Positions 16,751-62,155 of a stretch of 64,000 nucleotides of DNA are shown piece after piece. Below the pieces are notes generated by a model, which was given only the letters and a program-made list of their open reading frames with translations, ran no database searches and was not told where the DNA came from. The position numbers and the translations under genes are program-made. Every line of letters begins with the position of its first letter. The first letter of the stretch is position 1. Source of the stretch: a virus; IMG/VR virus record IMGVR_UViG_3300010397_000041, positions 1 through 64,000 of that record; one strand, written 5' to 3'.

Positions 16751-16775
16751 ACGGTGCATTCCTACTGTCCGGCCG

Positions 16776-17117
16776 GTGGCGCTGGACCGCGATTACGTCA
16801 CCCTCGCCGAGATCGACATGCTCGTCGGGGTCGCTGAGCTGCGCATTTTCCTCGGCCTGGGCCGCGAGGGCGGCCAGCCTGTCAGCCGCTCCTACGCCGA
16901 GCAGGTCGTGAACGGGGCCCGGTTCCCTGCCCCGCTGATCCGCTACCCCCGAAAGGGCCGCCTCCACGTCCGCCTGTGGCTCCTCGGCCCGGTCCTCGCG
17001 TGGATGGATGTGAACAAGCCGTCCTGGAGGGGCCGCCTCCCGGCAGGCAGCGAACACTGGACACGGGAGAGGCTGATGGAGTTCGTCGACGCTCAGGTGT
17101 TCGCGCTCGACACCTAG
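16776..17117 (+). CDS. AlpA/Xis-like HTH protein, paralog of 15631-15885
   Basis: VTLAEID...VSRSYA...FPAP...RLW...PSWR matches the 15885 gene. Confidence 0.75.
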   Translation: MALDRDYVTLAEIDMLVGVAELRIFLGLGREGGQPVSRSYAEQVVNGARFPAPLIRYPRKGRLHVRLWLLGPVLAWMDVNKPSWRGRLPAGSEHWTRERLMEFVDAQVFALDT

Positions 17118-17330
17118 CGCCAACGTCGACGATGCCCCGGAGGCAGGTGTCAGGTCTCGGCCATCGATGGCCGCTGTACAGGGCGGAGCGCGAGGCCCGG
17201 AAATGGTGCGGGCCGGCGGGTTTGGTGGTTCTGGCGCCCGCCGGCCCTATGCCCCTTGCAAACCCAAGCCGGAGACCAGCCCGAGAAACCTCAGAGTAGC
17301 GCGCCGCGTCTCACGCCCGCCAGGGCAGAG

Positions 17331-17735
17331 TCAGGCACCCTGACCCGGCCGGGCCGCGTCCCACGCGACCAGGTCCCCCAACCGGTACAGCCCGGCATCG
17401 TCCGGCCGGGGGAAGTAGTGCCGCTCCCCCGCCGGCGGCCAGCCCGCGGCGGCCGCTCGGCGCGCGTACTGGTAGAGCGTTGACTGGCTGCGGTCCGTCT
17501 CGACCGCGTAGGCCGAGAGTGTCAGCCACCGGTCGGGGCCGCCGTCAGGGACGGGCCGCGTTGGCGCGCCCGCGATCCGGGGATGCGCCGCGAGCCAGCC
17601 GCGGATCGCCGTCTCGGTCCGCTGCCCGGCCGGCGGGAAGTCCTCGTACCGGAGGGGCCAGCCGCGGGCCGTCCGCTCCGACCGGCCAGCGAGCTCGGCG
17701 ATCTCGGCGAACGTCAGAGACCGCCCGTCGGTCAC
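17331..17735 (-). CDS. Tandem AlpA-like HTH protein
   Basis: LTFAEIAELAGRSERTARGW...FPP and a second LTLSAYA...FPRPD...YRLGDLVAW. Confidence 0.7.
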   Translation of the reverse strand: MTDGRSLTFAEIAELAGRSERTARGWPLRYEDFPPAGQRTETAIRGWLAAHPRIAGAPTRPVPDGGPDRWLTLSAYAVETDRSQSTLYQYARRAAAAGWPPAGERHYFPRPDDAGLYRLGDLVAWDAARPGQGA

Positions 17736-17953
17736 CCGTCGACGCCCTCGACAGCGTCGCCGAGGATCGCCGCCGCGGGCAGCATGCCGTCCGCGAACCG
17801 CGCGGCGACCTCGCGCGGGACGCGGAAAGCGAGTGGCACGCCACCGCCGGTGCCGGCGGTGATGAGGACCTGGCCGCCGGGCAGCGGGTAGGCCGCGAGC
17901 TCGTCGACGGCCGGCGCGATACGGGCGAGCTCCGTGAGCTCGGTTTTGTCCAT
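17732..17953 (-). CDS. Small hypothetical protein
   Basis: AGGAG RBS; GTGA coupling. Confidence 0.55.
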   Translation of the reverse strand: MDKTELTELARIAPAVDELAAYPLPGGQVLITAGTGGGVPLAFRVPREVAARFADGMLPAAAILGDAVEGVDG

Positions 17954-18032
17954 GAGCTTCTCCTGCAGGTGGTTGACGTGGCTGCTGGGTGGCACGCCGG
18001 CCGCCCTGGGTGGGCGGCCGGCGCTGGCCCTG

Positions 18033-18314
18033 TTAGGGCCGGTCGGAATCGGTCGAGCGGAGCCGTTCCACCTCGGCGGCGGCGCCGGTCAGGCGCCGGG
18101 CGAGCGATGCTGCCCGAGTCTTGCCTGCGCGGCGCTGGGAGAACATCCCGATCAGCATGCGAGCCATGTCGCGTGCCTCATCGGGTGTCAGCCAGGCCAC
18201 GCGGGTCGGCAGGCCCTCTCCGTCGATGTAGGTGACTCGCACCATCCAGCGTCCGTCGTCCCAGGGGTCGACGCTGCGGGCTGCTGCGATCTCGACGCGA
18301 TCCGAATCGAACAT
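18033..18314 (-). CDS. Small hypothetical protein (beta3-alpha)
   Basis: GAGAGGAG RBS within the left arm of the inverted repeat. Confidence 0.65.
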   Translation of the reverse strand: MFDSDRVEIAAARSVDPWDDGRWMVRVTYIDGEGLPTRVAWLTPDEARDMARMLIGMFSQRRAGKTRAASLARRLTGAAAEVERLRSTDSDRP

Positions 18315-18318
18315 CGGA

Positions 18319-18547
18319 TCTCCTCTCTTGAGTTTTTAAGGGGCCCGGTTCGGGGTGCCACCCCCTTGCCGGTATGACTTACTTTAGCATGTCAGCATCT
18401 CACGTGAACACATGAACCCAACAATTAGGTTGGCCGATTCGTTGTTGGTATCGAGTGTCTTGTGGTCGATCGCCTATGCTAAAGTAAGTCATGTCGGAGC
18501 GGGGTGGCACCCAAACCGACAGCCCTTTACAAACTCAAGAGAGGAGA
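18319..18547. repeat. ~72-bp imperfect inverted repeat (duplicated divergent promoter/leader) around an 85-bp spacer
   Basis: Arms 18319-18390 and 18476-18547; perfect cores ATGACTTACTTTAGCAT and TCTCCTCTCTTGAGTTT. Confidence 0.9.
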
Positions 18548-18557
18548 AGAAGTCCAC

Positions 18558-18761
18558 ATGGACGACTTCCTCGGATTCGGTTCCCTCGAATTTGCCATCG
18601 TCGAGTTCCCGGATGGGAAGTTCGGCGTCGGCATCGAGGCAACCGTGGGAGACCAGGTCTTCCGCATGCCGATGAGCATCGACGTTGCCCTCGACATCGC
18701 CGAATCGCTCCTCGGAGCGGCGAAGCTGGCCAAGCTGCGCAACATCGCTGGCCAGAACTGA
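18558..18761 (+). CDS. Small hypothetical protein (beta3-alpha)
   Basis: GAGAGGAG RBS within the right arm of the inverted repeat. Confidence 0.65.
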   Translation: MDDFLGFGSLEFAIVEFPDGKFGVGIEATVGDQVFRMPMSIDVALDIAESLLGAAKLAKLRNIAGQN

Positions 18762-18854
18762 CCCACTCCCCAGCGGCCCCCGGCATCCAGCCGGGGGCCG
18801 CCCCAGGAAGTCGTCCAACCGCAGGGCCGCCCGGTGCCACCCGGGCGGCACAAA

Positions 18855-19493
18855 CTACCGGCGCGAACGGGACACGCGGAACGATCCGAGGCTCCGGAGC
18901 CGGACCGCGGCCTCGGCGACCTCCGGGTCCAGATCCGGCTCGTCCGGATCGACCCGCCGCACGTCACCGGCCGCCCCGGTCACCTCGACGAGCTTCGGGC
19001 CCGGGCCGATACCGGGCGGCAGCGGGGTGAACCGGGTGCCGCCGGCCGTGCCGTCTCGGCCGGTCCAGTCGTCGCCGAAACGATCAGCCATCGGTCTTCC
19101 CCTCGGGTTCCGGGCCTTGGGCGTCCATCGCGGCCCACGCTTTCGCGAACAGCTCGTCGGCCGCAGCGAGCTGCTCATCAGTCGCCCCGGGTAGGCGGCC
19201 CTGGCCGACCTCGCCGTCCTTGATCCAGATCGTTCCCCGCCAACGCGCCTCGACCGCCGCGGGCGTGGATTCGTCGTGGTCAGCCATTGGCGGCCTCCTC
19301 AAGGCGAACTATGGGCACGGCCGCGTTCGACCGTTTTCACCGCCTGCCAGTTCACCATCTCCCAACCGTTCGGACGATCCCAATCGGTTACGGCATGCTG
19401 GCTGACCCACTGGCCGACTTGAGCGAAAGGCCGCGGGCCCAGGACCTCGTCAGGCGGCGTGGCCGGCAGCGTGCTGTCGATGAGGAGTTTCAT
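18855..19493 (-). CDS. Three small hypothetical genes (19299-19493, 19084-19287, 18855-19091)
   Basis: Coupled or RBS-bearing ORFs downstream of the HTH gene. Confidence 0.5.
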
Positions 19494-19768
19494 CGCGGCT
19501 CCAGTGATGCGCAGGTCTGCTGCGCGGCGGTCGGACGATCGGTCTTCGAGCTGTCACCGGCGCGCCAGCCCTTGCCGGGCCGGTTTTTCAGCCAGGCCTC
19601 GATCGTGTCTCGGCGCCAGCGAGGCACACGGGTATAGCGGGTGTCGTCAGGAGGCGGCATTCGGGGCGGATCGGCAGCCCGGTAGGCGCGCAGCGTCGAG
19701 GTTGCGAGGCCGGTCAGTTCGGCGATCTCGCCATAGCTGAGTAGGTCGTCGGGTCTGGGGTCGGACAC
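19490..19768 (-). CDS. AlpA-family HTH regulator
   Basis: LLSYGEIAELTGLATSTLRAY...MPPPD...PRWRRDTIEAWLKNRPGKG; TAGCAT -10 upstream (leaderless). Confidence 0.85.
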   Translation of the reverse strand: MSDPRPDDLLSYGEIAELTGLATSTLRAYRAADPPRMPPPDDTRYTRVPRWRRDTIEAWLKNRPGKGWRAGDSSKTDRPTAAQQTCASLEPR

Positions 19769-19772
19769 GATG

Positions 19773-19845
19773 ACGATGCTAGCGGTTGCGCTGCATCGTT
19801 GTTGTCCTTCCCTTGAGGAACGATGCAGCGTTAGCGCTGTATCGT
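19773..19845. promoter_or_regulatory. Divergent promoter with repeated CGCTGYATCGT operator boxes
   Basis: Boxes at 19789-19800, inverted 19819-19830, 19835-19845, degenerate 19773-19784; they overlap both -10 elements. Confidence 0.7.
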
Positions 19846-19851
19846 GTAAGC

Positions 19852-20700
19852 ATGACGACGCCGCAGACCGCCAGCGACAAGGCCCGCAGCCTCCTCGCCA
19901 CGCCCGGCGCGGTCACCCTCCTGCGCGGCCACGGCGTTGCCCGCGTCTACACCGTCATCGGCCGGACCGGCACCTACCGGACCACCGAAGCGACCTGCGA
20001 CTGCCCGCGCGGCCTCAACGGCCTCGGCTGCTACCACTGCGAGGCGATCCGTCTCCACCACGCCGGCGAGCCGCTCGCCGCGCCAGCGCCGGTCGCCGAC
20101 GTGTGGGCGCTGCTCCCCGCCGTCGACGACGACCTCGAGGTCCCGACGCCGCAGGCGGACGAGGCGCTCACGGTCGGCCAGGCCGCCGCCCGGCTCGGCG
20201 GCCTCAAGCCGGACACGATCCGCCGCTACCTCGCCGCCGGCAAGCTGGCCCGCCTCGACGGCGGCGTCTCGGCGGCGAGCGTCGCCGCCTACGCCGAGGC
20301 CCGGGAGGCGAACATCACCCGCACCCGGTTCCGCAAGACCACCCCGGCGCCCAGCGCGGCGACCCAGGCGAAGCCTCGGGCGTTCTTCGCCCCGGCAGAC
20401 ATGCCGGCCGTCGAGGAGATCGAGGCGGAGGCGATCGCGTTCGACGAGGCCGCCGACAGCTACCGCGCTGGCGACAGGGGCAAGAACCGGGCCCGCAAGC
20501 TCCTCGACAAGGTCCCGGCCGGCCAGTACGGCCGGGCGCGCATCGAGTGGGTGCCGTCGAACACCAACCGGGCCGACTTGGACGCCATCGCCGCGATCTT
20601 CAAGGCCTACGACCTCGGCCCGGTCCCGATGAAGCGGGACCGCGACTCGCTGAAGGTCACGATCGCCGCCGCGCCGGCCGTCCAGCTGCGCGCCGCCTGA
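19852..20700 (+). CDS. SWIM zinc finger + HTH protein
   Basis: CDCPRGLNGLGCYH (CxC-x-CxH); LTVGQAAARLGGLKPDTIRRYLAAGKL. Confidence 0.75.
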   Translation: MTTPQTASDKARSLLATPGAVTLLRGHGVARVYTVIGRTGTYRTTEATCDCPRGLNGLGCYHCEAIRLHHAGEPLAAPAPVADVWALLPAVDDDLEVPTPQADEALTVGQAAARLGGLKPDTIRRYLAAGKLARLDGGVSAASVAAYAEAREANITRTRFRKTTPAPSAATQAKPRAFFAPADMPAVEEIEAEAIAFDEAADSYRAGDRGKNRARKLLDKVPAGQYGRARIEWVPSNTNRADLDAIAAIFKAYDLGPVPMKRDRDSLKVTIAAAPAVQLRAA

Positions 20701-44613: not shown

Positions 44614-46398
44614 TCAGCTCGTCGGCTGAATCCCGACGATCATCGACGAGCGGTCGGGGGCGTACGCGGCCATCGTCGACGTCCAGTACACGGACGTGTC
44701 GTACGACATCTGCATGACGGGCCAATCGATGCTCATGTAGTCCTGTGGGCCGCGGATCTCCCAGCAGTTCGCGACGTTCACCCCGGGAACGGTGATCGAC
44801 GACTGGAGGACGACGGCGTTACCCTGCGGCATCCAGGGGTGCACCTTGATGTCGACGGAGCGGCCGGTCGTCTCGTTCACGATGCTCGTGACGACGCTGC
44901 CGAGCTTGACGCCCATCAGCTGGTCCTCGGAGATCTCCAACCTGTAGTTGGAGGCGGACTGGCCGCGCAGCGTCGAAGAGATCTGATGCCTGTCCTGACC
45001 CGACAGCCAGATCTCCTCGGGATCCGCCTTCGTCGCCGCGTAGGTCGCGGCGAACGCGGCCTGGAACTCGGCACCCGGGCTTGCCGTGGAGAACGGGGCG
45101 TTGAGCCGGCCGACGTAGCCGGTGGTGGCGGCCTGCGACCAGATCCACGGGATGATCCCGTCGTAGTTGTCCGGCCGGGCCGACACACCGTCACCGGTGG
45201 CGAGGTTGACGGTCGCGCCGCCCTGGATCGGCCAGGCGGCGACGGTCGCCGTGGCGAGGCTTCCCGAACCGGGGGTACCGATCGCGCCCTGCAGGGTGAG
45301 GGTCTGCGTCGGGGTGCGGCCCGCGGACTGGTTGCTCGGAAACGCCGGGCCGACGTACAGGTAGCGGCTCGCGTCCCCGGGGTCCGAGGCGCCGGTGGAG
45401 ACGAACACCTTGTAGCCGGTGGTCCCGGTCACCGGGTTCGGGATGGTGATGTCGACGACCTGGCCGGCCGAGACTGCGATACCCGAGGACGCGGACGACG
45501 CCTGCGAGACGCCGAACTCGCCGCTTTCGGCGACGACGCGGACGTAGACGTTGCTGGTGAACCCGGTCAGCGCCGTCTCACCGGTCGCCGCGTTCCGGGC
45601 CGCGCCGGTCGGCGTGCCCGACGGGGCGGCGACGAGGCCGCTGTACCCCTGCAGGGTCCCGCGGCCGTAGAGCATCACCCGCTCCTCGGCCAGCATCGAG
45701 GCGTAGAGCGTGGCCATGCGGCTCAGCTCGCGAGTGTCCTGGAATCCCATCGCGCTGAAATAGGTCCAGAACGACTGTTCATCGCTGGCGCCCATCTGCA
45801 CATAACTGAGATTGGTGTCGTCACCGGCGTAGCTGATCTTCTGCGGGCGGTTCCACCACAGCGGGTTCGCCGAGCCCGGGTTCGCGAAGTTGACCTGGGT
45901 CGGATCGGTGAATCCGGGGTTGAACGCGCCCAGCCCGCCGGTTCCGGAACCGGAAATACCGGTCACCCTCTTGTAGCGGTATGAGGTGCCCATTCCCTGC
46001 GTGCGGGGGAACTTGTTCCTCATCGGCGTCAAGATCGGAGCGAGGAGCAGCGCCGGGGCACGCAGGTCGAAGCCGACGAGACCACCGGGCACGGGCGACG
46101 TCGGGGTGATGTCCTTCTGCAGCCAGTCCGCGCCCAACTGCTGGGCGACCGCCGCCTCGACCGCCGCCATCTTGTCCGCGGACACGCCCAGGTTGCCGTA
46201 CGCCTTCGTCAGAACCTGACGGGCGTTGCCGCGGACCGTCGGGACTAGCGCCTTGTTCATGACGTCGAGTTCGACGTCACCACGTTGCGTGTTCGGCGTC
46301 GTCTCGACCGCCATCCGGAAATCAGCGGCGGCCTTGACCAGGTCGGCGTCGGAAAGCTTCGCGCCGAACAGCTCGCGCAGCAGCGTCGTCGAACTCAT
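44614..46398 (-). CDS. Major capsid protein (HK97 fold, SU10-like) with inserted Ig/FN3-like domain
   Basis: FDLRAPALLLAPILTPMRNKFPR; EERVMLYG; YDGI; DPEEIW; VHPWMPQG; DYMSIDWP; GAAAGAGG RBS. Confidence 0.88.
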   Translation of the reverse strand: MSSTTLLRELFGAKLSDADLVKAAADFRMAVETTPNTQRGDVELDVMNKALVPTVRGNARQVLTKAYGNLGVSADKMAAVEAAVAQQLGADWLQKDITPTSPVPGGLVGFDLRAPALLLAPILTPMRNKFPRTQGMGTSYRYKRVTGISGSGTGGLGAFNPGFTDPTQVNFANPGSANPLWWNRPQKISYAGDDTNLSYVQMGASDEQSFWTYFSAMGFQDTRELSRMATLYASMLAEERVMLYGRGTLQGYSGLVAAPSGTPTGAARNAATGETALTGFTSNVYVRVVAESGEFGVSQASSASSGIAVSAGQVVDITIPNPVTGTTGYKVFVSTGASDPGDASRYLYVGPAFPSNQSAGRTPTQTLTLQGAIGTPGSGSLATATVAAWPIQGGATVNLATGDGVSARPDNYDGIIPWIWSQAATTGYVGRLNAPFSTASPGAEFQAAFAATYAATKADPEEIWLSGQDRHQISSTLRGQSASNYRLEISEDQLMGVKLGSVVTSIVNETTGRSVDIKVHPWMPQGNAVVLQSSITVPGVNVANCWEIRGPQDYMSIDWPVMQMSYDTSVYWTSTMAAYAPDRSSMIVGIQPTS

Positions 46399-46480
46399 GG
46401 AAATGCCTCTTTCGGGCATACGAAAAGCCCGCCACCCTGCGGGAGGACGGGCCTCGAATGTGGTCTGGGGGGATGCGCCG

Positions 46481-48466
46481 CTATGCGGCGGCGGGCGGGT
46501 CCAGCGCGTCGAGCTGCCGCTGAATCTCGGCCCGCATCGCCGGGTCGGCGCCGGGGGCGTCACGCATCGCGCGCAGCACGCCCTTCTTCACGTCCGCCTC
46601 CGCTGTCTTTGCGAGCTCGGCGGGCGACACCGGAGGCTGCACTCGCGTCCTGGCAGGGCCGCCCGGCCTCGGCGTCTCGTGCAGCGTGGCCTTCACCTCT
46701 GCCAGCCCCTGCGCGAGGGGCTCCATGGCCTTCGTGATGGCGTCGCCGAACTGCGCCGCGAGGTCGGCACTCACCCGTGCGGTGATCGCCTTCGTCAGCG
46801 TATCGGTGTCGGTGGTGCTGGCCGCCTTCGCCATGTCAGGCTCGGCGGGGGTCTCGGTGCCGGCCTCGCCGGCGTGGGTCGCGGCCGCGGCCGCGGCCGC
46901 CTTCTTCAGGCGCTTCCGCATCTTCTTCGCGGCCTTTTCGGCGGCAGCCTTCATCAGGTCGGGGGTGCCGGCCTTCTCGGCGCCGTCCTCGGTCGGCTCG
47001 GACAGCGCGCCGGCGTCAGGCTCGGTCATGTGCTTGATCTCCATGGCTTCGTTCCTCATGAACCAGGTCACGAGCTCCGCCGCCTGCGCGAGCAGCGCGA
47101 TGTCCGCCACCTCGCCGAGCTCGCCGAGGAACAGGCCCATCGCCTCGGAGCGGATCAGGCACGCCAGGCCCTGGATGACGGCCTTCGCGGCCGCGATGTC
47201 GTCCATCTCGGACGCGGCCGCGGCGTTGTCGGTGAGCTGCAGCCCGCCTTCGTCGCCGTCGTCGGCCTTGACCACGTCGGGCGCCGTAGCCTTCTCCTTC
47301 GGCTTGGTGGAGCCGGGCCAGTCGGCGGGCAGCAGGTCCGTCGCGTCGAGGGCCTTTGCGCGATCGGTGATGTGCTTCTTCGCGGCCGCCGGGTCCTTCG
47401 CACGGCCGAACGCCTGGATCGCGTCGTTGAGCTGGGCCCGGTTCTGGATCGGGAACCCGCCCGACGGCATCGCCTCGCCCGCGGCGGCCGCGTCCTCGCG
47501 CTCGCCGGCGGTGAACTTCCGCTTCTCGAGCTCGGTGGCGACCGCCTTGATCAGCGTGTCGAAGTCGGGCTCGACGGCCTTGCTCGAGGACTTCGCGCTG
47601 CCGGTGTCGTCGGCGTCCTCGCTGTCGGGCTTGCCGTCCCCGTCGTCGTCCTCATCGTCCCGGTTGTGGACACCGTCGCCGTCAGGGTCGGAGCCGCCCT
47701 GGCCGCCGTCCTCCGATTGGAAGGGCTTGGCCTTCCGGCCACCGAACTTGCCGGCCTTCTTCCGCTTCGCCAGCGTCTCCGGATCCGCGGCGTCCGGGTC
47801 GTCAGGGTTGGCGACGACGGAGGGGGCGGTGAGCTGGTCGACCAGGGCGGCGGTCATCGGCAGCACCCGACCATCCGAGGTCTTGAGCAGCATCTGTGGG
47901 CCGGGCGCGACAGGGACCGCATCGACCGCCTTCTCGACCTCGTCGCCTTCGACGAACTCGGGGCTGTCGACGAGGTCGAGCGAGCCGGTCGCCTTGTTCA
48001 GCGCGGCCATGCGAAACAGCGCCGACGGCAGCGAGGGCCGGTCGACGGCGCTGACTTCGATCACGTCGCCCCGGCAAACCTTCCCGTTGGGCGCGTCGGT
48101 GGCCTTGGCAAGGCCGTAGTTCGCGACACCGACCGAGAATCCGGTCAGGATTCCGTGCTCGATCTTCGCTTCGGCGACCGGGTCGACGATCTTCGCCCGC
48201 ATGTGCCACGAGTGGTCGTCGGTCTCCCAGACCTCGACCGCCTTACCAATCGGCCGTTGGGCCGAGTGGCCCTCGCGGACATTCCCACCTGACGGCCCGT
48301 GCATGTACGCCGGGATCGCGGCCTTGAGCCACGTCGGGTCCATGCGCTGGCCGTCGGAGTCCAGGTCCGGGCCGGTGAACTTGCCCTCTACCCAGAGGAT
48401 GCCGGCTTCGTCGCGTTCCTTGCGCAGGAACGGGGTGTAGATGTCCAGACGCTCAGCAACGGGCAT
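46481..48466 (-). CDS. Prohead protease fused to scaffold (with AMPSGGFPI domain)
   Basis: DSDGQ; NVREGH; IGKA; GILTGFSVG; IEVSAVDRPS; AMPSGGFPIQN...LNDAIQAFGRA; helical scaffold C-terminus. Confidence 0.85.
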   Translation of the reverse strand: MPVAERLDIYTPFLRKERDEAGILWVEGKFTGPDLDSDGQRMDPTWLKAAIPAYMHGPSGGNVREGHSAQRPIGKAVEVWETDDHSWHMRAKIVDPVAEAKIEHGILTGFSVGVANYGLAKATDAPNGKVCRGDVIEVSAVDRPSLPSALFRMAALNKATGSLDLVDSPEFVEGDEVEKAVDAVPVAPGPQMLLKTSDGRVLPMTAALVDQLTAPSVVANPDDPDAADPETLAKRKKAGKFGGRKAKPFQSEDGGQGGSDPDGDGVHNRDDEDDDGDGKPDSEDADDTGSAKSSSKAVEPDFDTLIKAVATELEKRKFTAGEREDAAAAGEAMPSGGFPIQNRAQLNDAIQAFGRAKDPAAAKKHITDRAKALDATDLLPADWPGSTKPKEKATAPDVVKADDGDEGGLQLTDNAAAASEMDDIAAAKAVIQGLACLIRSEAMGLFLGELGEVADIALLAQAAELVTWFMRNEAMEIKHMTEPDAGALSEPTEDGAEKAGTPDLMKAAAEKAAKKMRKRLKKAAAAAAATHAGEAGTETPAEPDMAKAASTTDTDTLTKAITARVSADLAAQFGDAITKAMEPLAQGLAEVKATLHETPRPGGPARTRVQPPVSPAELAKTAEADVKKGVLRAMRDAPGADPAMRAEIQRQLDALDPPAAA

Positions 48467-48524: not shown

Positions 48525-48854
48525 ATGAGCGACGACAGCCCGCAGTACGAGCCACTCGCGGCCGGCGGCGCAGTGAAAGCGACTGCCTACCTGCCCGACT
48601 TCGATCGGTGTGAACTCGCCATCGCCAACCCGCAGATCAGTGACCGGGGTGTGGTCGATGGCGGCCGGCTCGTAGAGGTCTCGCTACCGAAAGACATCGC
48701 GGCGAAGCTGACGCCCGGCCTGCTGCATGGGCTGTCGGTTGGGCAGACCGCTGATCGGGTCATCCCGCATTGGAACCGCACATCGATGCCGATCGACGCG
48801 CCAGCGCTCGGGATGCTGACAGATACCGACGAGCCGGAGACGGATCAGCCGTAG
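48525..48854 (+). CDS. Small protein carrying permuted prohead-protease motifs
   Basis: GGAG RBS; GGRLVEVSL and AKLTPGLLHGLSVG. Confidence 0.6.
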   Translation: MSDDSPQYEPLAAGGAVKATAYLPDFDRCELAIANPQISDRGVVDGGRLVEVSLPKDIAAKLTPGLLHGLSVGQTADRVIPHWNRTSMPIDAPALGMLTDTDEPETDQP

Positions 48855-49111
48855 AGCATCCCGAGTAGCGCCGGATACTCCCCGCCGGTCGGTGCAGGTT
48901 CGGTCTCGGCCGGGCCCAGCGCGCGCTCGACCGCGTCGACGAGCCGGCCGAGCTCCCGCACCCGGCTGAGCGTCGGCCGGTCGGTCAGCGCGGTGGCCGC
49001 GACGGTCAGCAGCGCGTCCGCCAGCGGGACGGCCAGCGGGCTGGGGTCCCGCTGCAGTGCGATGCGGGCCTCGTGGACGCGGGCGCCGAGATCGTCAGGA
49101 TCCGCCCGCAT
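48845..49111 (-). CDS. Hypothetical helical protein
   Basis: GAGGAG RBS; high GC3. Confidence 0.55.
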   Translation of the reverse strand: MRADPDDLGARVHEARIALQRDPSPLAVPLADALLTVAATALTDRPTLSRVRELGRLVDAVERALGPAETEPAPTGGEYPALLGMLYG

Positions 49112-49535
49112 CGGCGCTCTCCTCGGACTCGGGGGCGTCGAGGCGCATCTGCTTGTCGCGCGCTGCGATCTCCCAGCGGGAGAAGGCGGTATAAACGTCG
49201 CGCTCGTCCTTCCACCCGTCCGATGGGAAGACCATCGCCGGAATCGACGGGTCCCTGCAGAGCACAGCGGCATAGACCCGGTGCTGGCCGTCTATGCCGA
49301 CCATAGAGCCGCTTTTCCGGACTCCGACGATCACCCGCTTGGACTGACGGTCGGCCTCGGACAGTTTCATCAGCGCAGCGACCTTGTCAGGGTCGAGTGG
49401 GCGCTGGCTGTGGACCCGGTCGAACATGATCAGCTGAGGGTCCAGGTAGACCGGCGACAGCTCGTCGTCGTCGAGGCCCAGGTCGGCGGCGGTGTACGTC
49501 GTCGGGTGGTTGTGTTCGCCGTCCTGGTCAGCCAT
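49095..49535 (-). CDS. ParB/Srx N-terminal-like DGQHR domain protein
   Basis: SQRPLDPDKV...IDGQHRVYAA. Confidence 0.75.
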   Translation of the reverse strand: MADQDGEHNHPTTYTAADLGLDDDELSPVYLDPQLIMFDRVHSQRPLDPDKVAALMKLSEADRQSKRVIVGVRKSGSMVGIDGQHRVYAAVLCRDPSIPAMVFPSDGWKDERDVYTAFSRWEIAARDKQMRLDAPESEESADAGGS

Positions 49536-49908
49536 CGGCGGGCACCGGGTCGCCGAGGAACGTCACCGTGTTGCCGGCCCTGACGGACCGCTGGTCCGCT
49601 TCGGGGATGTCCAGCGGTGGCATGTCCAGCGCAGCGCGCGCCTCGTTGACCGTCATCCGTCCGGTTCCGACCTCGGCCGCGAGTCGGCGGTCCTCGAACT
49701 CGTGCCAGGCACGCCACTGGGCGTCCGACATGGGGACGAGCGAGTAGGCGATCTGGTTCTGATCGTCCGGGTTCGGCAGGGTGACGATCAGGTCGACGGT
49801 GACAGCCGTGCGGTTGGGCCACGCGATAGTGAGAGTCACCTCGCCGGGGGCGACGGCTATCCCGGTTGGCCGAACCGGCGAGACGCTGATCTCAGGCAGG
49901 TCAGACAC
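49528..49908 (-). CDS. Small protein with portal C-terminal (crown)-like segment
   Basis: GGAGG RBS; TVNEARAALDMPPLDIPEAD. Confidence 0.7.
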   Translation of the reverse strand: MSDLPEISVSPVRPTGIAVAPGEVTLTIAWPNRTAVTVDLIVTLPNPDDQNQIAYSLVPMSDAQWRAWHEFEDRRLAAEVGTGRMTVNEARAALDMPPLDIPEADQRSVRAGNTVTFLGDPVPADG

Positions 49909-50242
49909 GGGGACCTCCGAAGCCGGGGCCGTTGCGCAGCCTCTGCCGTTGGATCTCTTGCCACAGCCGCTGGCCGTCGATGTGAACCGGTGTGCCGTCG
50001 GGGAGGGAACCGATCGGGGCGCGCCGCTGGATCGCGTCGACCTTGGCGTGCAGCGCGGCGAGGGCCTGCTCGTGGGCGTCGTGGCGAGCGTGCAGCTCGT
50101 CGCGATGCCGGGCGAGGTGTACACGCATCCGCCAGACGGCGAGGGCGCCGGCGGGGGCCGCCCAGATCGCCGAGGCGATCAGGTTCGACCAGATGCCGCC
50201 AGCCGGCCACGCGAAGAACACGTCGAGAAGATGCACAGGCAT
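49901..50242 (-). CDS. Membrane protein with tape-measure C-terminus-like motif
   Basis: GAGGAG RBS; N-terminal TM; VHIDGQRLWQEIQRQRLRN. Confidence 0.65.
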   Translation of the reverse strand: MPVHLLDVFFAWPAGGIWSNLIASAIWAAPAGALAVWRMRVHLARHRDELHARHDAHEQALAALHAKVDAIQRRAPIGSLPDGTPVHIDGQRLWQEIQRQRLRNGPGFGGPRV

Positions 50243-50252
50243 CTCCTCACGG

Positions 50253-50528
50253 TCAGAACCTGGCGCCAGGCGGGGCGTCGCTCTCAAGGTCGAACACGGG
50301 TGGGGATCCGGTCGGGGTCATGCCCTTGCTGGCCAGCCAGAGGAACACGGTCGGCTCGTCGTCGAGGGCGAGCGGAACGCGCGGCCCGGTGGCGGTATAT
50401 CGGACGAGGACGCCGCGGGCAGCTTCACGGCGAGCGCGGATGGTGACGGGCTCCGGCCAGTCGACAGGGCCGCCGTCCCAGCGCAGCGTGCGATGCCGCC
50501 CGTACAACTCCCCCGCCATCTCCCACAT
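50253..50528 (-). CDS. Small protein downstream of MuF peptidase (possible immunity/partner)
   Basis: 4 bp after MuF stop. Confidence 0.55.
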   Translation of the reverse strand: MWEMAGELYGRHRTLRWDGGPVDWPEPVTIRARREAARGVLVRYTATGPRVPLALDDEPTVFLWLASKGMTPTGSPPVFDLESDAPPGARF

Positions 50529-50532
50529 GCCT

Positions 50533-52344
50533 TTACAATACCGCCCAAAGGCCGAGAATGAAATACAGATAATCCTCGTCCTGCGCGAGCATCATCGGGT
50601 CATCTGATGATCCGATAAGCATTTCCGAGCCCATCGACGCGACTTCCCAACCGTCCGAGGGCGAGTCGCTGTAAACCCTGCCGATGTAGGGGTCTTTGAA
50701 CTCGTCGGGGCGGGACATTTCGTCCGCGTCGTAGGGTTCAGGTGACAGCGCCCGCATGGACCTTTTACGGCCCAACCGGGTCCACGTTCGGACACCATCG
50801 ACGAGGTGGCTGTTCCGGTCGGCCCAGAACACCCATTGGGCGCCGACGATACCTGGCACGGCCCACTCCATCATGTGGGCCAGCTCGTGAACCGCGATCA
50901 CGTCGCTGTCCATCATCGCAACGACGATCTTAGGGGTTTTCCCTTTCGCGCCAGCCGAGAAGTAGGCCCGGCCGCGCTGCTTCATTGCCGCGCGGAGCGG
51001 TGCCTTGTCGGAGGCGCGCCGCACCCAGTCTGACGGAAAATGGCGCAGCATCCGGGAGATCCGTCGCTGTGCCGCTTCGGCCGACGACTCGGTGAAGGCG
51101 ATCTGGCCGCCCATGGGCCGCAGGTCACCGAGGACTTGAAGCCGGACGTCGGCCAGACGGCCGGAGATCTGGTCACGGCGCTGCTCGGCGGCTTGCAGGT
51201 CGTCCAACGCCCGCTCGTATCGCTGGCGCAGGTCGTCGACGTGCGCCTGATCGGGCGTCGCCTCAGCGGCGGCCTGCTCGAGCTGGTCGCCGAGACGTTC
51301 GGCGTCGGCTTCCAGTGCCGCGATCCGCTGGGCCAGCGCTTCCTGTTCGGCGAGCTGCACCGCCAGTCTCTGCCGCGCTTCCTGTTCGATCTGCTTTCCG
51401 ACGTCGCGCAGGACGTTGACCTTCGCGATCGACGCTTGGTCGGGTAGCCCCTGGGTGTCGGCGTCGTACACCGGTTTGCCGTCTTGGAGGATCGTGCCGA
51501 TCCGCTCCGGGTCGCCGATCTCGCTTCGGGCGTTGTTCACAGCGTCCTGGAGCCGCCCTGTCGACCTGTGGGGGGTCGGCGACGCGGCTGGGCGGGGGCT
51601 GTCGACGGCGTCGGGTGGCATGCTGGCATGCCGCGGCGTCGGCTCGTCCGCCAGGCCCGTCTCGTCGTCGGCCGTCTCGTCGTCGGACTCTGCGCCGGCG
51701 TCGTCCTCGGCGATGTCGTCGTCTTCGAGATCGTCGGCGGCGTCCAACTCGCCGCCGGCTTCGCCGTCCAGGCCGAAGTCGGACAGGCTGTAGCCCATCG
51801 AGGTCAGATCCGCCGGGGTCAGGTAATCCGCCGTTACTGCGCACCGGCATTTCGGATGGGTCGGCGGCCAGCCATTAGGTGGTTCATCGTTCACGGGGAT
51901 CGGCCCGGCGTCCTCGTTCTCCTGGCAAAGAGCACACACGCGAAGATCGTTGGAGCTGAGCACCGAGGCGGCGGGGAATCCTGCATCCCGGTAGGACGCG
52001 AGACTGGCCGCCGTCATCGCCCGGGCCATCTCAGTGGTGGCAACCATCTCCGCCCACGCCGGGTCGTCCAAAACTCCTTGCAGCGTGCGGGCAAGCTCGT
52101 CAGACGAAGCGCCGCGGGCAACAGCGTCCGACACAGCGCCTGACAGCTTGTCGAGCCGGTTGTCTTCGATCGAGGCGAGCAGGCTCCCGCGTTGCGCGGC
52201 CCGGTCGGACCAGGAGGCGTCGCGGCCTACGGCCTGGGCGATGAGCTGGTCCTGCTGGCGGGCGAGACGTGCGGCTGGCTCGTGGCCCGGCGTCCAGCTG
52301 TCCCAGTCGATCGAGGACTCGACGATGGGCGCGGCCACGGTCAC
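50533..52344 (-). CDS. MuF-like head morphogenesis protein with C-terminal HExxH metallopeptidase
   Basis: ATTEMARA; VCALCQEN; PPTHPKCRC; HELAH...YIGRVY...EVASMGSE. Confidence 0.85.
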   Translation of the reverse strand: MTVAAPIVESSIDWDSWTPGHEPAARLARQQDQLIAQAVGRDASWSDRAAQRGSLLASIEDNRLDKLSGAVSDAVARGASSDELARTLQGVLDDPAWAEMVATTEMARAMTAASLASYRDAGFPAASVLSSNDLRVCALCQENEDAGPIPVNDEPPNGWPPTHPKCRCAVTADYLTPADLTSMGYSLSDFGLDGEAGGELDAADDLEDDDIAEDDAGAESDDETADDETGLADEPTPRHASMPPDAVDSPRPAASPTPHRSTGRLQDAVNNARSEIGDPERIGTILQDGKPVYDADTQGLPDQASIAKVNVLRDVGKQIEQEARQRLAVQLAEQEALAQRIAALEADAERLGDQLEQAAAEATPDQAHVDDLRQRYERALDDLQAAEQRRDQISGRLADVRLQVLGDLRPMGGQIAFTESSAEAAQRRISRMLRHFPSDWVRRASDKAPLRAAMKQRGRAYFSAGAKGKTPKIVVAMMDSDVIAVHELAHMMEWAVPGIVGAQWVFWADRNSHLVDGVRTWTRLGRKRSMRALSPEPYDADEMSRPDEFKDPYIGRVYSDSPSDGWEVASMGSEMLIGSSDDPMMLAQDEDYLYFILGLWAVL

Positions 52345-52936: not shown

Positions 52937-53470
52937 TTAGAAGATGCTGCGGCCGCCGCGTGGCGCGCCGGGCGCTTCTCTCATCAGCTGGTCGAGGCCG
53001 CGTCGCTCCCGGTGCCGTTTCCGGTGCTGCCGATCGTCCTGGCCGCCCGGCGTCGCTGCCTTGACCGCCGGTGCCGGCTGGTGGTGCAGCCTCGGCGGAT
53101 CGAGCGGCACAGGCTTCGGCGCGGCTTTGGCCTGCGCTCGCCGCACTGCGTCGTCGGCCGCCAGTTCCCCGGCCGCCCAGCCGGCCCGGTAGCAGTCCCT
53201 CAGAGCCGGGCCCAACGCGCCTTTGCGGGCGTGTTGGTCGAGGATCAGCCGGATCTCGTGCCGCAGGATCTGCGGGTCGGTGGTCGTCCCGCCGGGCCAG
53301 CGGGCCGCGAGGACGCGGGCGACGGCTTCCGGGTCAATAAGTCGGCTGGCAGCCTGGGATACCCGCTCGGCGTAGCGCGGGTTCAGCGCGTCGTGCGCCT
53401 GGAAGCCGATCCACTGCGCCCGCTCCCTGGTCAGGTCGCGGGCTTGCGGCTCGCCCCCCGCCACCACCAC
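52937..53470 (-). CDS. MuF N-terminal-like segment overlapping the portal end (possible frameshift fusion)
   Basis: LGPALRDCYRAGWAAGELAA; 137-nt overlap with portal across a G6 run. Confidence 0.55.
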   Translation of the reverse strand: MVVAGGEPQARDLTRERAQWIGFQAHDALNPRYAERVSQAASRLIDPEAVARVLAARWPGGTTTDPQILRHEIRLILDQHARKGALGPALRDCYRAGWAAGELAADDAVRRAQAKAAPKPVPLDPPRLHHQPAPAVKAATPGGQDDRQHRKRHRERRGLDQLMREAPGAPRGGRSIF

Positions 53471-55643
53471 CAGCCTTCGCCAGCTCGGCTACGGCCGCTT
53501 TGGCTCTCAGGGCGGCGAGCCCCGGCTGGTTGTCCTGCACCATGACGTTCAGTTCGCGGGCCAGCTGCTCCGGCACTGCAGTGAACGTGAACGCGCGGGA
53601 CCTGCCACCCGACTTCTCCAACCGGGTTGCGTAGCGGGCGAACGCACCCAGCTCGGCCGCGACCGCCTTCGCCTCGTCCTTCGGACGGTGCGGAAAGCCA
53701 TCCTCGGCCAGCCCGTAGGCCAGACAGCCCGGCTCGCCGTCCGTGGGGACGAACCGGTGCTGGATGTCCTGGGCGTCGCCGGCGGTGCCGTCGATGCCCT
53801 GCGCCTGGCGGGCCGCCTCGCCAGCCTCCTGGAAGGCCTGCGTGGTGGCGGTCTTGGCTACGGCCGTCTTCTGGCCCGAGCCGTCCGAGGCGGACGCCGG
53901 CTTGGGCGGCGCAGCTTCCTCGCCGGCGTCGGAATCGTCGCCGGAGTCGTCGTCGGATTCTTCGGACTCGTCGGCCTGCTTCCCGCGGGCCGGTCGCTGC
54001 GCGGGCGCGGCTTGGAAACCCGCGACGGCGGCCTGCGAGCCGGCCCTCGCCGCGGCCCCCTGCGCCTCCTGGATCGCCTTCTGGCCGTCGAGGAACAGGA
54101 CGCCGCGGCCGTAGGCGACGAACGGCTCGTCGGCTTCTTCGATCGGCAGCGGCGGCAGGCCCATCTCGTCGCGGGCCTCGTTCAGCGTCCGCCGGCCGCC
54201 TTTGACCTGCGTGTCCAGCACCGCATCGGCCGATGCCTGGTCTTCTTCCTCGAGGCCGAGGAATTTGAACTCGACGGCGGGGTGGACACCGAGGTAGCGG
54301 TGGTTGATGTCGTTGAAGATCGCGGCGAGCCATTTGCACCACGGGTGGATCAGCTTGCGGTACTGGATGTTCTCCTGGCCCTCGTGGTAGCTGCTGCCCC
54401 CCAGGCCGCCGGACTCGATGAAGCCGATCTCCGCCGGGGTGACACCGAACGCGGCGGCGATCAGCTTGACCAGGAACAGGTCGTACTCGGGCTTGTACTT
54501 CTGCGCGTTGTCCGTGAAGGTTGCCAGCTTGCCGCCGGGCAGGCCGATCTGGATCCGCTGCCGTTCGGAAAGGTTCCCCGACAGCGTGTTGTTGATCTCG
54601 GCGCGCCAGCGGCGGACCTCGGCCGGGGTCATACCCTTCGCCGACTCAGGGACCTCGAGGAACGCCATCGGCAGCGACGAGGCGTCGAACTCCTGGGTCA
54701 GCCAGTCGGCGCGTTTCAACCACAGGTTGATCTCGATCAAGGCTTTTTCGACGGGGCTGATGCCGTAGGGCGAGATGGTACGGACCTCGCGGCGGCAGTA
54801 AATCAGCTCGTCGGCGGTCAGCCCGCCGTCGATCGTGCCGTCCTTCCCGATCGCCGCGGTGAACTCGCCACGAGGGAAGCCGTACATGATCTGCTGGAAC
54901 GCGGGATCGGGCGGCAACGGCCGCCGGCCGCGGTTGTCCAGAAGCGGCTTCACGAACTCGCCTGCGATGATCTCGCAGGCCAGGTCGTTGCCGTACGACC
55001 AGCGCGGATTGATCGCCAGCGCGTCGAGGACCAACGACTCTTCGAGCGCCATCCCGAGCCAGTCGACGAAGTTGTAGCCGCCGAACCGGTCGGGCCGCTT
55101 CCAGAACGCACGCGCCTTCGCGATGTCCGGTGCGAGCTTCTCCCGCAGCGCCGACTTCGCCTGGACCTTGCGGATCCCGTCGAGTTCCATCGCGGTGGTG
55201 ACGGCATCCTCGGACACGGTGGTCGCCCAGTCGAGCCCGCAGATCTCCGATTTGATCAGGGAGATGCAGTAGCGGACGATCCCGACGTCGGCTGCCTTCC
55301 GCAGCGTCTCGAACGGCACATGCCGCCGTTCACCGCCGGGGACGTTCCAGCCGACCGGATATTCCCAAACCCTGGGGTCCGTGCGGCCGTCGGGGCGAAG
55401 CGGGTCGATCGCGTACGGCCCGGGCGGGGTGAGCGGGCCGAACGGAGCCGTGTAAGGAAGTTCGCGGGGCAGCGGCTCGTAGGCGCCGATCGCCACACCC
55501 GACTGCACCGCGCCCGCCGCGGCCGCGGCCGCCTGCGCGGACATGTCCCGGGTCTGACCGCCGGCGGCACGGGCCGCCGCCGCGTACGACGCCTTGTCGA
55601 GCTGGCGGCGCTTACGGTTGCGGGCACGGCTGCGAGACGACAC
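53334..55643 (-). CDS. Portal protein
   Basis: PFETLR; ESLVLDA; YGISPVE; AAFGVTPAEIG; TLNEARDEMGLPP. Confidence 0.92.
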   Translation of the reverse strand: MSSRSRARNRKRRQLDKASYAAAARAAGGQTRDMSAQAAAAAAGAVQSGVAIGAYEPLPRELPYTAPFGPLTPPGPYAIDPLRPDGRTDPRVWEYPVGWNVPGGERRHVPFETLRKAADVGIVRYCISLIKSEICGLDWATTVSEDAVTTAMELDGIRKVQAKSALREKLAPDIAKARAFWKRPDRFGGYNFVDWLGMALEESLVLDALAINPRWSYGNDLACEIIAGEFVKPLLDNRGRRPLPPDPAFQQIMYGFPRGEFTAAIGKDGTIDGGLTADELIYCRREVRTISPYGISPVEKALIEINLWLKRADWLTQEFDASSLPMAFLEVPESAKGMTPAEVRRWRAEINNTLSGNLSERQRIQIGLPGGKLATFTDNAQKYKPEYDLFLVKLIAAAFGVTPAEIGFIESGGLGGSSYHEGQENIQYRKLIHPWCKWLAAIFNDINHRYLGVHPAVEFKFLGLEEEDQASADAVLDTQVKGGRRTLNEARDEMGLPPLPIEEADEPFVAYGRGVLFLDGQKAIQEAQGAAARAGSQAAVAGFQAAPAQRPARGKQADESEESDDDSGDDSDAGEEAAPPKPASASDGSGQKTAVAKTATTQAFQEAGEAARQAQGIDGTAGDAQDIQHRFVPTDGEPGCLAYGLAEDGFPHRPKDEAKAVAAELGAFARYATRLEKSGGRSRAFTFTAVPEQLARELNVMVQDNQPGLAALRAKAAVAELAKAGGGGGGRAASPRPDQGAGAVDRLPGARRAEPALRRAGIPGCQPTY

Positions 55644-55665: not shown

Positions 55666-55863
55666 TTAGTCGTGCCGCGGACAGCCGCCCATGACCACCA
55701 GGCCGTAGGTCGGATGCCAGTGGCAGCCGCATCCCAGGCCGCGGCGAAGCCACACGTGGGCGATGAACAGGAAGCGCCGCGGGCCGGGCCTGTACCCGGC
55801 CTCACGCCAGAGGGGACGCATGAACCGGACGTAGCCGATCAAAGTCACAGGGTCCGCCTCCAA
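55666..55863 (-). CDS. Small Cys/His-containing protein
   Basis: CGCHWH...GCPRHD; lies between terminase and portal. Confidence 0.45.
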   Translation of the reverse strand: MEADPVTLIGYVRFMRPLWREAGYRPGPRRFLFIAHVWLRRGLGCGCHWHPTYGLVVMGGCPRHD

Positions 55864-57479
55864 CCCTGCGCGGATTCGCCCCCGCCGAACCAGGCCGACA
55901 TGTCGACCGCCGCAGGCTCCCGCGCTTCGGGCGGCGGCTGCTGGTGCGCGTTGGCGTCGGATTCGGCGATCAGCTGGTCCATGAAGCTGGCGAAATCACC
56001 CCGCAGATCCACGAAGGCGAGGATGAGCGCGTCGGCGTTGTCGGGCGACCGGCCGAGCCGCTCCCGTTGATCGTCCTTCGGCTCGACCTGGATCTGCCCG
56101 CGGCTGTTCGGATGCCACTTCGCGGTCAGCAGCTGATTGCAGGCGTCGTCAGGATTCTCCGCGCCCGACTGCCACACACCGTCAGCGTTGTAGACGGCCG
56201 GGGAGAGGTCCCACGCCTGCTGCTCGGACTGGAGCCGGCCAACCTCCCACCAGATCTCCGACCGCAGGTTCGCGAACCGCTTCGAGTCGGTTGCCTGCTG
56301 GCCGACGTTCACCCCGGTCACCGTCGCCGTGTGGGTGCCGTCGCCGCGGAGCTCCTTCAGCCGGTCGGCTACGCCGGCGCCGATACCGATGCTGTCGACG
56401 TTGACGGCCGTCGCCCCGGTGATCTCAATCGCTTTGAGGACCAGGCGGACGACGGACATGGTGTCGTCGTCGCGGTCCCGCCACTCCCGGCCGACCATCC
56501 GGCCGCGCCGCTCCCGGATCACAGTCTCATCGCCGCCGCCACCGACGTCGACACCGAGGACAACCGGGGTGAGCTCGTCCGGGGTGTACTCGCGGTCGGT
56601 GGGCTGCCGGCACTTCGCCAGGTCAGAGGAGCGCACGACCTGATCGGAGGCGTCCAGCGGGAACTCGCCGAGAACCTTCTCGAACCAGAGCGGAGAGCCC
56701 TCACCCCAGTCGGCGCGCTTCTCCTCCACCCACGTCTTCGAGACCAGCGCGCGGCGCAGCAGATCCGGGACCCGTTCGCCGGTCAGGTTCGGCGTGTCGA
56801 ACGCGGAGATGGTGATGACGTGCCAGCCCGAACCGGGACGGCAGACCTGCGCGAATTCGCTGGAAGGGTCGGCAGGGTTGCCGATCGCCAACAGGGCGCA
56901 GCCCTCGTTGGTCATGAGCGCGTCGGCGGCGGTCCACAGCCAGCCGGGGATCCCGCTCGCCTCGTCCAACGCAACCAGAACGCCGTCGGGGGCGTGGATG
57001 CCCTGAAAGGCGGTGCGGCCCTGCTCCGTGTCGGGCGGTTTCCGGCCGAAGCCGATCAGCTCTTTGCCGAGCTTCCACTCCGTGGTGAGCACCCGGCCGG
57101 GTAGGGGCGTGCCACGTTCCGCGGCGACCGCCGCGGCCTGGCCGATGTAGCGCCACAGGATCGCCTGGACCTGGGCAGCCGACGGCGCGGTCGTGACCGC
57201 GAACGCCTGACCGGGAGTCCGGGTCGCAAGCCAGTGGGCCACGACCCGAGAGGCAGTGTGGGACTTTCCGCAGCCGTGTGCCGACTTGACCGCGACCTTA
57301 CGGTGCCTGGTCAGCGCGGTGACGATCTCAACCTGCTTGGACCACAGATGCTCGCCGAGCACGTCCGACACCCACAGCGCGGGGTCGGTGCGGTACTGCT
57401 GCTGGCGGGCCTCGCTGTCGAGCCGGTCGAGAGCGGCGAGCAGGTTGGATGACAGCCGGTCGGGCAGCGCTACCACCAT
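55845..57479 (-). CDS. terL: Terminase large subunit
   Basis: SAHGCGKS Walker A; VALDEASG Walker B; IGNP; LGVDVGGGGD; NVDSIGIG; SPDNADA. Confidence 0.95.
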   Translation of the reverse strand: MVVALPDRLSSNLLAALDRLDSEARQQQYRTDPALWVSDVLGEHLWSKQVEIVTALTRHRKVAVKSAHGCGKSHTASRVVAHWLATRTPGQAFAVTTAPSAAQVQAILWRYIGQAAAVAAERGTPLPGRVLTTEWKLGKELIGFGRKPPDTEQGRTAFQGIHAPDGVLVALDEASGIPGWLWTAADALMTNEGCALLAIGNPADPSSEFAQVCRPGSGWHVITISAFDTPNLTGERVPDLLRRALVSKTWVEEKRADWGEGSPLWFEKVLGEFPLDASDQVVRSSDLAKCRQPTDREYTPDELTPVVLGVDVGGGGDETVIRERRGRMVGREWRDRDDDTMSVVRLVLKAIEITGATAVNVDSIGIGAGVADRLKELRGDGTHTATVTGVNVGQQATDSKRFANLRSEIWWEVGRLQSEQQAWDLSPAVYNADGVWQSGAENPDDACNQLLTAKWHPNSRGQIQVEPKDDQRERLGRSPDNADALILAFVDLRGDFASFMDQLIAESDANAHQQPPPEAREPAAVDMSAWFGGGESAQGWRRTL

Positions 57480-61605: not shown

Positions 61606-61706
61606 CGCTGCCACCGGTCCCGCTCGAAGTAGACGCCGAGGGTGAAGCCGAGCAGACCGGAGGCGAGGGCGGCCAGCACGATGATCAGGATGGTGCTCGC
61701 GGTCAT
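61602..61706 (-). CDS. 34-aa single-TM protein
   Basis: MTASTILIIVLAALASGLLGFTLGVYFERDRWQR; coupled on both sides. Confidence 0.6.
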   Translation of the reverse strand: MTASTILIIVLAALASGLLGFTLGVYFERDRWQR

Positions 61707-62155
61707 GATGTTGACTCCGCTGCGAGCAGGAACCGCATCGCCTCGTCGCGGCGGAACCCTGCCTGCAGGTGCGCGGCGAGCGTCTCGTACCGGGCCCTCG
61801 CAACCGGGTCAGGAGGCAGGGCTGTCGGCCCGGTGACGACCGCCGTGGCTGACGGCAGCCAGTTGCACGTCAGGATCGGCACACCCCGGCCGGTAAGCGG
61901 ATGGGCCACCGTCTCGATAAATGCGGGCTTGTTCAAAGCATCGTCGTAAGTCCGAGGCGGCCGGACCGCGACGGCAAGCACCGTTTGCGCCGTCGACGAC
62001 ATGTAGATCCCGGCCGGTTCGCCACCCCAGTCCCGGACAATCGTTTCCAGGGCGTCGAACAGCCGGTCTGGTGCTGCGACCCTACTGACGTCGATTTGGC
62101 GGAGTTCGCCGGTCTCGCCGTCGGCCCAGTAGATGTGGGTCAGGTCGCCGGTCAT
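61703..62155 (-). CDS. Stand-alone major-capsid A-domain-like protein
   Basis: GGAGG RBS; EPAGIYMS...TGRGVPILTCNWLPSATAVV matches own MCP. Confidence 0.7.
   Translation of the reverse strand: MTGDLTHIYWADGETGELRQIDVSRVAAPDRLFDALETIVRDWGGEPAGIYMSSTAQTVLAVAVRPPRTYDDALNKPAFIETVAHPLTGRGVPILTCNWLPSATAVVTGPTALPPDPVARARYETLAAHLQAGFRRDEAMRFLLAAESTS

Follow-up and report, generated by a model that had tools for sequence, protein, structure and literature searches.

The window analysed here is the first 64 kb (64,000 nucleotides) of the virus record IMGVR_UViG_3300010397_000041, a complete genome of 92,425 bp with direct terminal repeats. The genome has a G + C content of 70%, and its sole strong match among sequencing runs was a soil metagenome, perhaps the sample of origin; no RNA run was listed. 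An actinobacterial host is suggested, tentatively, by the soil origin and the 70% G + C. The gene under study, P0001, is located in the head module between the genes for a MuF-like minor head protein and a protease-scaffold, amid small accessory head-module genes. The features of this region, given in the order of transcription, are as follows:

55845-57479, minus strand: large terminase, first in order in the head module
53334-55544, minus strand: portal gene, encoding 736 aa with the ATG at 55544 as start (PF04860, E 2.8e-13; phrog_2662, E 2.8e-62)
54084-54224, minus strand: crown segment of this portal, residues 441-487 (numbered from that ATG), counterpart of the P0001 module
between the portal and MuF-like genes, minus strand: small ORFs of the head module
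50533-52344, minus strand: MuF-like minor head protein
between the MuF-like gene and o49901, minus strand: o50253, head module
49901-50287, minus strand: o49901, upstream neighbour of P0001 (tblastn identity of 48-64% in the relatives L003, L004, L006 and L019)
49914-49918, minus strand: Shine-Dalgarno sequence GGAGG, 5 nt ahead of the GTG start at 49906-49908 (read from the sequence)
49899-49907, minus strand: upstream junction TGTCTGACC, shared by the stop of o49901 and the start of P0001 (GTGTCTGA)
49528-49908, minus strand: P0001, 126 aa by translation, stop codon at 49528-49530
49726-49908, minus strand: N-terminal region of P0001, residues 1-61, with no relatives and two strands predicted at low confidence
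49690-49725, minus strand: start (residues 62-73) of the long predicted helix 62-81 that leads into the module (AF2 model, compared with portal helix 435-448)
49549-49689, minus strand: module very probably homologous to the portal crown, P0001 residues 74-120 (BLASTP, hhalign, AF2 and VIA-align)
49526-49534, minus strand: downstream junction TGGCTGACC, shared by the stop of P0001 and the start of the ParB-like gene (ATGGCTGA)
49095-49535, minus strand: ParB-like protein, downstream neighbour (phrog_1033, E 1.7e-7; 55-62% identity in relatives)
between the ParB-like and protease-scaffold genes, minus strand: o48845, head module
46481-48466, minus strand: protease-scaffold
44614-46563, minus strand: major capsid protein

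P0001 overlaps each of its neighbours by 8 nt in a start/stop arrangement. Its G + C contents at the three codon positions (GC1/2/3 of 0.70/0.50/0.86) were those of the adjacent head genes, with the same pattern in both halves of the gene. The GTG start at 49908 is backed by the composition of the stretch upstream of it: where the longer ORF runs on beyond this start, the pattern in the P0001 frame is non-coding (0.47/0.85/0.85), and it is the conserved gene o49901, overlapping there, that shows the coding pattern. In the flanks of P0001, its own strand carries no site resembling a promoter or terminator. The start signals, the overlaps, the GC pattern and the lack of such flanking sites make P0001 a normal member of the late operon, coupled to its neighbours in translation. 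A second assembly, which probably stems from the same sample, also yielded an identical protein. Judged from these sequence features, P0001 is a genuine small gene, co-transcribed within the head-morphogenesis operon.

The first-pass annotation had described the protein as ending in a copy of the portal C-terminal (crown) segment, with 20 of 40 residues identical without gaps, and counting by hand gave the same figure. BLASTP of P0001 against the portal of the same genome aligned 46 residues without gaps, 22 of them identical (E ~2e-8). A six-frame search of the whole 92-kb genome with P0001 found a single second match, the portal (E 9.5e-7), and in an all-vs-all BLASTP of the 288 high-GC3 ORFs of the genome the P0001/portal pair had an E value of 1.7e-6. 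Against an alignment of 14 portals, hhalign matched residues 74-120 of P0001 to portal residues 441-487 with a probability of 96.4% and an E value of 1.1e-9. The portal profile phrog_2662 matched P0001 residues 69-112 (E 3e-4) at positions 378-424 of its 717, and PF04860 gave no hit to P0001 at E <= 0.1. At 126 aa, with this partial phrog_2662 match and no PF04860 hit, P0001 is thus not itself a portal. Both invariant positions of portal crowns, G450 and R458, are kept in P0001 as G83 and R91, and two of four nearly invariant positions are also kept (portal E456 and E470, P0001 E89 and E103). The similarity between P0001 and the portal exceeds what chance would give. A further profile of 53 positions and unknown function, phrog_25202, matched the portal motif and did not match P0001.

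The shared segment falls in the crown of portals of known structure. The crown of the phage 812 portal comprises residues 437-507 (PMC12886913). In a HMMER alignment of the resident portal with that protein (8q7d), the stretch was aligned from about chain residue 439, and the motif lies at roughly residues 450-470 of the chain, as counted by eye from the printed alignment. HMMER also aligned the portal motif with residues 380-397 of the 424 of the HK97 portal gp3. The crown of the T5 portal pb7 comprises residues 337-377 (PMC11313276), and VIA-align superposed residues 67-112 of the P0001 model on pb7 residues 335-380 with Z 6.5, an rmsd of 2.1 Å over 46 residues and 33% identity. The four best matches were all portals, including those of DT57C (Z 6.3) and phiXacJX1 (Z 4.8), and the next, unrelated chain reached Z 2.6. 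The P0001 model is a prediction, these Z values are under 8, and portal crown segments had been seeded into the model's alignment, so that the structural match partly depends on the match in sequence. In a Foldseek search of the PDB the T5 and DT57C portals came out on top, but nothing reached E <= 0.001.

In the AlphaFold2 (AF2) model of P0001, pLDDT was about 90 over residues 70-115, and the predicted elements were helices 62-81, 87-93 and 102-105 and strands 108-111 and 114-117, with the hairpin spanning 108-117. The portal model has helices 435-448, 454-461 and 469-472 and strands 475-478 and 481-484. From the second helix on, the elements of the two models match one to one with an offset of 367 residues, the same as in the sequence alignment. 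Residues 62-73 of P0001 occupy the position of the first portal crown helix and have no significant sequence match. P0001 ends nine residues past the hairpin, where the portal goes on with helix 485-510. BLASTP, hhalign, the published crown ranges and the predicted fold all bear out the claimed C-terminal copy, and P0001 is very probably a homologue of the portal crown domain.

Beyond the crown, the resident portal has a long extension. Its residues ~500-736 (window 53334-54040) comprise an acidic, low-confidence linker of ~110 residues and then a helical C-terminal domain (622-691, pLDDT about 90), and this extension is conserved in the closest relatives. In more distant relatives, the portal frame extends far beyond the portal match (753-1385 aa; L007:7902-11069, L009:10001-13102, L013, L014:5910-9836, L016:34-4188, L018:10001-13435 and L020:6744-9005). 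In L007-L009, L014/L015, L018 and L020 a MuF-like match lies within the portal frame, which places MuF directly after the crown. Portal and MuF are separate genes in the window phage and its closest relatives. In the MuF-like protein of the window (603 aa), C-terminal residues 404-593 match PHROGs of unknown function, outside the MuF domain (66-170), and a 91-aa ORF comes after its gene.

The N-terminal part of P0001 showed no similarity to any portal by BLASTP or hhalign and had no Pfam hit. Nothing was found with it in the ESM Atlas, and HMMER against representative proteins gave, for residues 7-35, only summed weak matches to repeat proteins. Its model had a pLDDT of 33-64 and two strands. 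For a comparison with FN3 and Ig-like domains, the weak repeat-protein matches and this model were what could be drawn on. The earlier description of an unrelated beta-rich N-terminal domain therefore holds in that this part is unrelated to portals; the beta-rich character is weakly supported, by two strands at a pLDDT of about 60.

The portals of L003, L004, L005, L006 and L019 are 55-61% identical to the resident portal. In the four closest relatives, L003, L004, L006 and L019, P0001 is absent, and o49901 is directly followed by the ParB-like gene, either with an identical start/stop overlap or at a distance of a few tens of bases at most. Since the flanking genes abut there, P0001 represents a one-gene insert of 381 bp. 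The edges of the insert carry an imperfect 9-nt direct repeat (TGTCTGACC / TGGCTGACC). The more distant relatives L007-L018 also lack P0001, and the region is differently organised in them. Gain in the lineage of the window phage is more parsimonious, and hence likelier, than repeated loss.

The module and the corresponding part of the resident portal gene had 62% nucleotide identity over 138 nt and 63% identity at third positions, the latter in a genome with a GC3 of 0.86-0.88. At the residue level, the module was identical to the resident portal at 21/43 positions, to the L020 portal-MuF fusion at 21/43 and to the L007 portal at 20/43. A recent duplication of the resident portal was considered and is ruled out by the 62% nucleotide identity together with the module being no closer to this portal than to others. 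The module diverged long ago, and most likely it arrived at this locus already diverged.

We searched for further proteins of this kind in several collections. A HMMER pass over 1.84 billion representative proteins gave one true relative of P0001 among the matches listed, the metagenomic protein P0007 (125 aa, encoded on an 18-kb contig). P0007 scored 38.7 bits, and no portal was among the seven listed hits, the weakest of which scored 36.5 bits. Its residues 77-122 are 54% identical to residues 74-119 of P0001 (23/43 in the module). The two proteins share features that the resident portal does not have, TGR(M/I)T, PP(L/I)D-x-PEAD and SV-x-x-GNT. The module of P0007 is C-terminal, as in P0001, and its N-terminus is unrelated and carries a CxxC...C pattern.

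When 5.8 billion proteins were searched by word index, all of P0001 and its residues 70-126 as queries returned only P0001 itself and P0007, and a profile of the two modules found nothing beyond them among longer proteins. There was no tblastn match to P0001 in 50,697 phage records. Scans of viral, metagenome and genome contigs with P0001, P0007 and their alignment found only the L020 portal-MuF fusion and an ORF in L021. In the ESM Atlas, whole P0001 gave only leads below 0.9, which were small viral proteins, 18% of them carrying a portal Pfam. The module copy is real and almost without parallel in the databases.

The L021 ORF (127 aa, L021:7914-8297) belongs to the early region of a viral contig that is unrelated and of lower GC, and its neighbours are XRE/Cro-like and DUF1351 genes. 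It carries the first 21-31 motif residues and ITGRMTVNEARAKLQL, which matches P0001 at 28/32 nt, and it matches the portal profile phrog_12 weakly at the same profile positions. The ORF had no relatives in the viral collection, and the L021 record held no second copy of the motif. In L018, positions 19244-19432 encode SGKMTVDEARAQIG in the scaffold-like part of a 1033-aa protease-scaffold (ORF 16754-19855). This sequence resembles the motif of the first crown helix of portals and P0001 (11 of 21 residues shared with P0001; E 0.04 against a small database), a weak resemblance that could be chance. Two companion claims of the first-pass annotation, a protease 'mimic' (48525-48854, plus strand; BLASTP E 0.037 over 14 aa) and a capsid 'mimic' (61703-62155, minus strand; E 0.002 over 30 aa), proved much weaker than the portal case, for which the same pairwise comparison gave E 1.4e-8. 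As to the companion claim on a tape-measure gene, no ORF of at least 1200 aa was found.

As to function, we tentatively favour a reading of P0001 as an accessory head protein, with crown-type contacts serving for docking or oligomerisation. The crown module would be the constant docking or oligomerisation part and the N-terminus a variable payload. P0001 would be produced at the same time as the portal, MuF, protease-scaffold and capsid proteins, and crown-type contacts would then place it at the inner face of the portal vertex or let it build a crown-like ring of its own. The outcome would be an accessory protein of the head interior or of the portal vertex. For this reading, P0007 and P0001 form a modular pair with the same C-terminal module and unrelated N-termini, and the invariant crown residues have been kept despite the old divergence; the place of the gene, between those for MuF and the protease-scaffold, is also in its favour. 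Against it, the putative payload has no recognisable fold. Because the gene is missing from every sampled relative, P0001 is dispensable for this head type, and the finding of only two full-module proteins among billions makes for thin support of a selected family. The crown of a portal is a closed ring of 12 subunits without a free lateral interface, which counts against the docking of a thirteenth crown. A complex prediction with P0001 and the portal core (residues 30-520) scored 0.00, which is no evidence either way.

The main rival, somewhat less likely but serious, is that P0001 is instead a functionless chimera, in which foreign DNA with a portal 3' fragment was inserted at the gene boundary by illegitimate recombination and is translated through coupling as a neutral passenger. 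Such an origin agrees with what the four closest relatives show, flanking genes that abut and no P0001 between them, and the short direct repeats at both junctions fit a microhomology-mediated insertion. An N-terminus without relatives and with a low-confidence fold, and an almost empty family, also speak for it. However, synonymous sites of the module are saturated in comparison with every portal, yet the frame of the module is intact and the invariant crown residues are retained, and codon usage is fully host-like in both halves. In addition, P0007, at 38.7 bits, is closer to P0001 than any portal in the 1.8 billion representatives, none of which is among the matches listed (weakest 36.5 bits), which argues for descent as a module of small proteins.

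We regard as improbable a role as soluble mimic or decoy, in which the free crown ties up a crown partner or poisons the portal ring of a competing phage, so that P0001 would be a regulatory or conflict protein and not part of the virion. The module is about equally far from its own portal (21/43) and from others such as that of L020 (21/43) and thus is not tuned to the resident portal, and the distribution of the gene is patchy and accessory, as this role would have it. The position of the gene speaks against it, since P0001 lies inside the late head operon and is translationally coupled, and is not an early or moron-like unit with its own promoter.

A small helix-turn-helix DNA-binding protein whose resemblance to portals is incidental is a very remote prospect. 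Residues 74-94 gave a weak hit to GntR (PF00392, E 0.069) at 13.3 bits against a cut-off of 27, which is below the gathering score for this family; Fis appeared at Z 2.6 in the structure comparison, and portal crowns contact DNA (PMC12886913). The portal match, however, spans 47 residues, continues past both helices to take in the PEAD turn and hairpin, and is far above any helix-turn-helix match, and the four best structural matches were all portals.

The remnant of a second, truncated portal gene is barely credible and largely refuted: what is there corresponds only to the 3' crown part of a portal gene, but the old copy is a complete frame with its own Shine-Dalgarno sequence, start codon and clean start/stop overlaps, no other portal-like sequence lies upstream, where the conserved gene is not a portal, and the relatives have no second portal at the locus. 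This was the scenario that the first-pass annotation had named as its own refutation, a truncated second portal gene with no conserved N-terminal partner; the truncated gene was not seen, and the N-terminal part does differ in P0007, the only other family member.

A wider and doubtful reading is that free-standing exposed pieces of the portal, here the crown, form a recurrent class of small phage proteins that act in trans on the packaging vertex. Members of such a class might adjust how the crown moves in headful sensing, bring variable payloads into the head or sabotage the portal assembly of competitors. Within the portal, the crown is the part turned towards the packaged DNA, and a role as the sensor for the end of packaging has been proposed for it (PMC12886913). 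In some phages, internal proteins also dock on it (PMC11440229). If functional, a separate crown domain would provide a natural handle on the contacts for the end of packaging or for docking, and it would mean that portal domains are reusable as modules. The evidence so far comes from one uncultured soil phage and one other metagenomic protein. In the literature on this topic, we found no description of a free-standing crown-domain protein.

Among known systems, P0001 is closest to the crowns of HK97-type portals, at the C-terminal end of PF04860, with which it has in common the motif G-R-x-T-x-N-E-x-R ... P-P ... E-A-D ... followed by a hairpin, and the same order of helices and hairpin. In structure-based alignments (Z 4.8-6.5), P0001 was 31-34% identical to T5-like portals and 28% identical to that of phiXacJX1. 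A portal carries its crown as the C-terminal domain of a chain of at least 400 residues, with wing and stem holding it in the 12-fold ring, whereas in P0001 the crown stands alone after 60 unrelated residues and lacks a further crown helix after the hairpin (helix 485-510 in the resident portal). In the PhiM1 ejectosome, EP3 helices intercalate between the crown domains (PMC11440229), which sets a precedent for docking on the crown. EP3 of PhiM1 and T7 and the SPP1 gp7/MuF family are targeted to the inner face of the portal, and MuF is encoded beside the portal and, in relatives of the window phage, fused directly after the crown. These proteins have no sequence or fold relation to P0001 and are not crown copies, so that their likeness to it is a functional analogy only.
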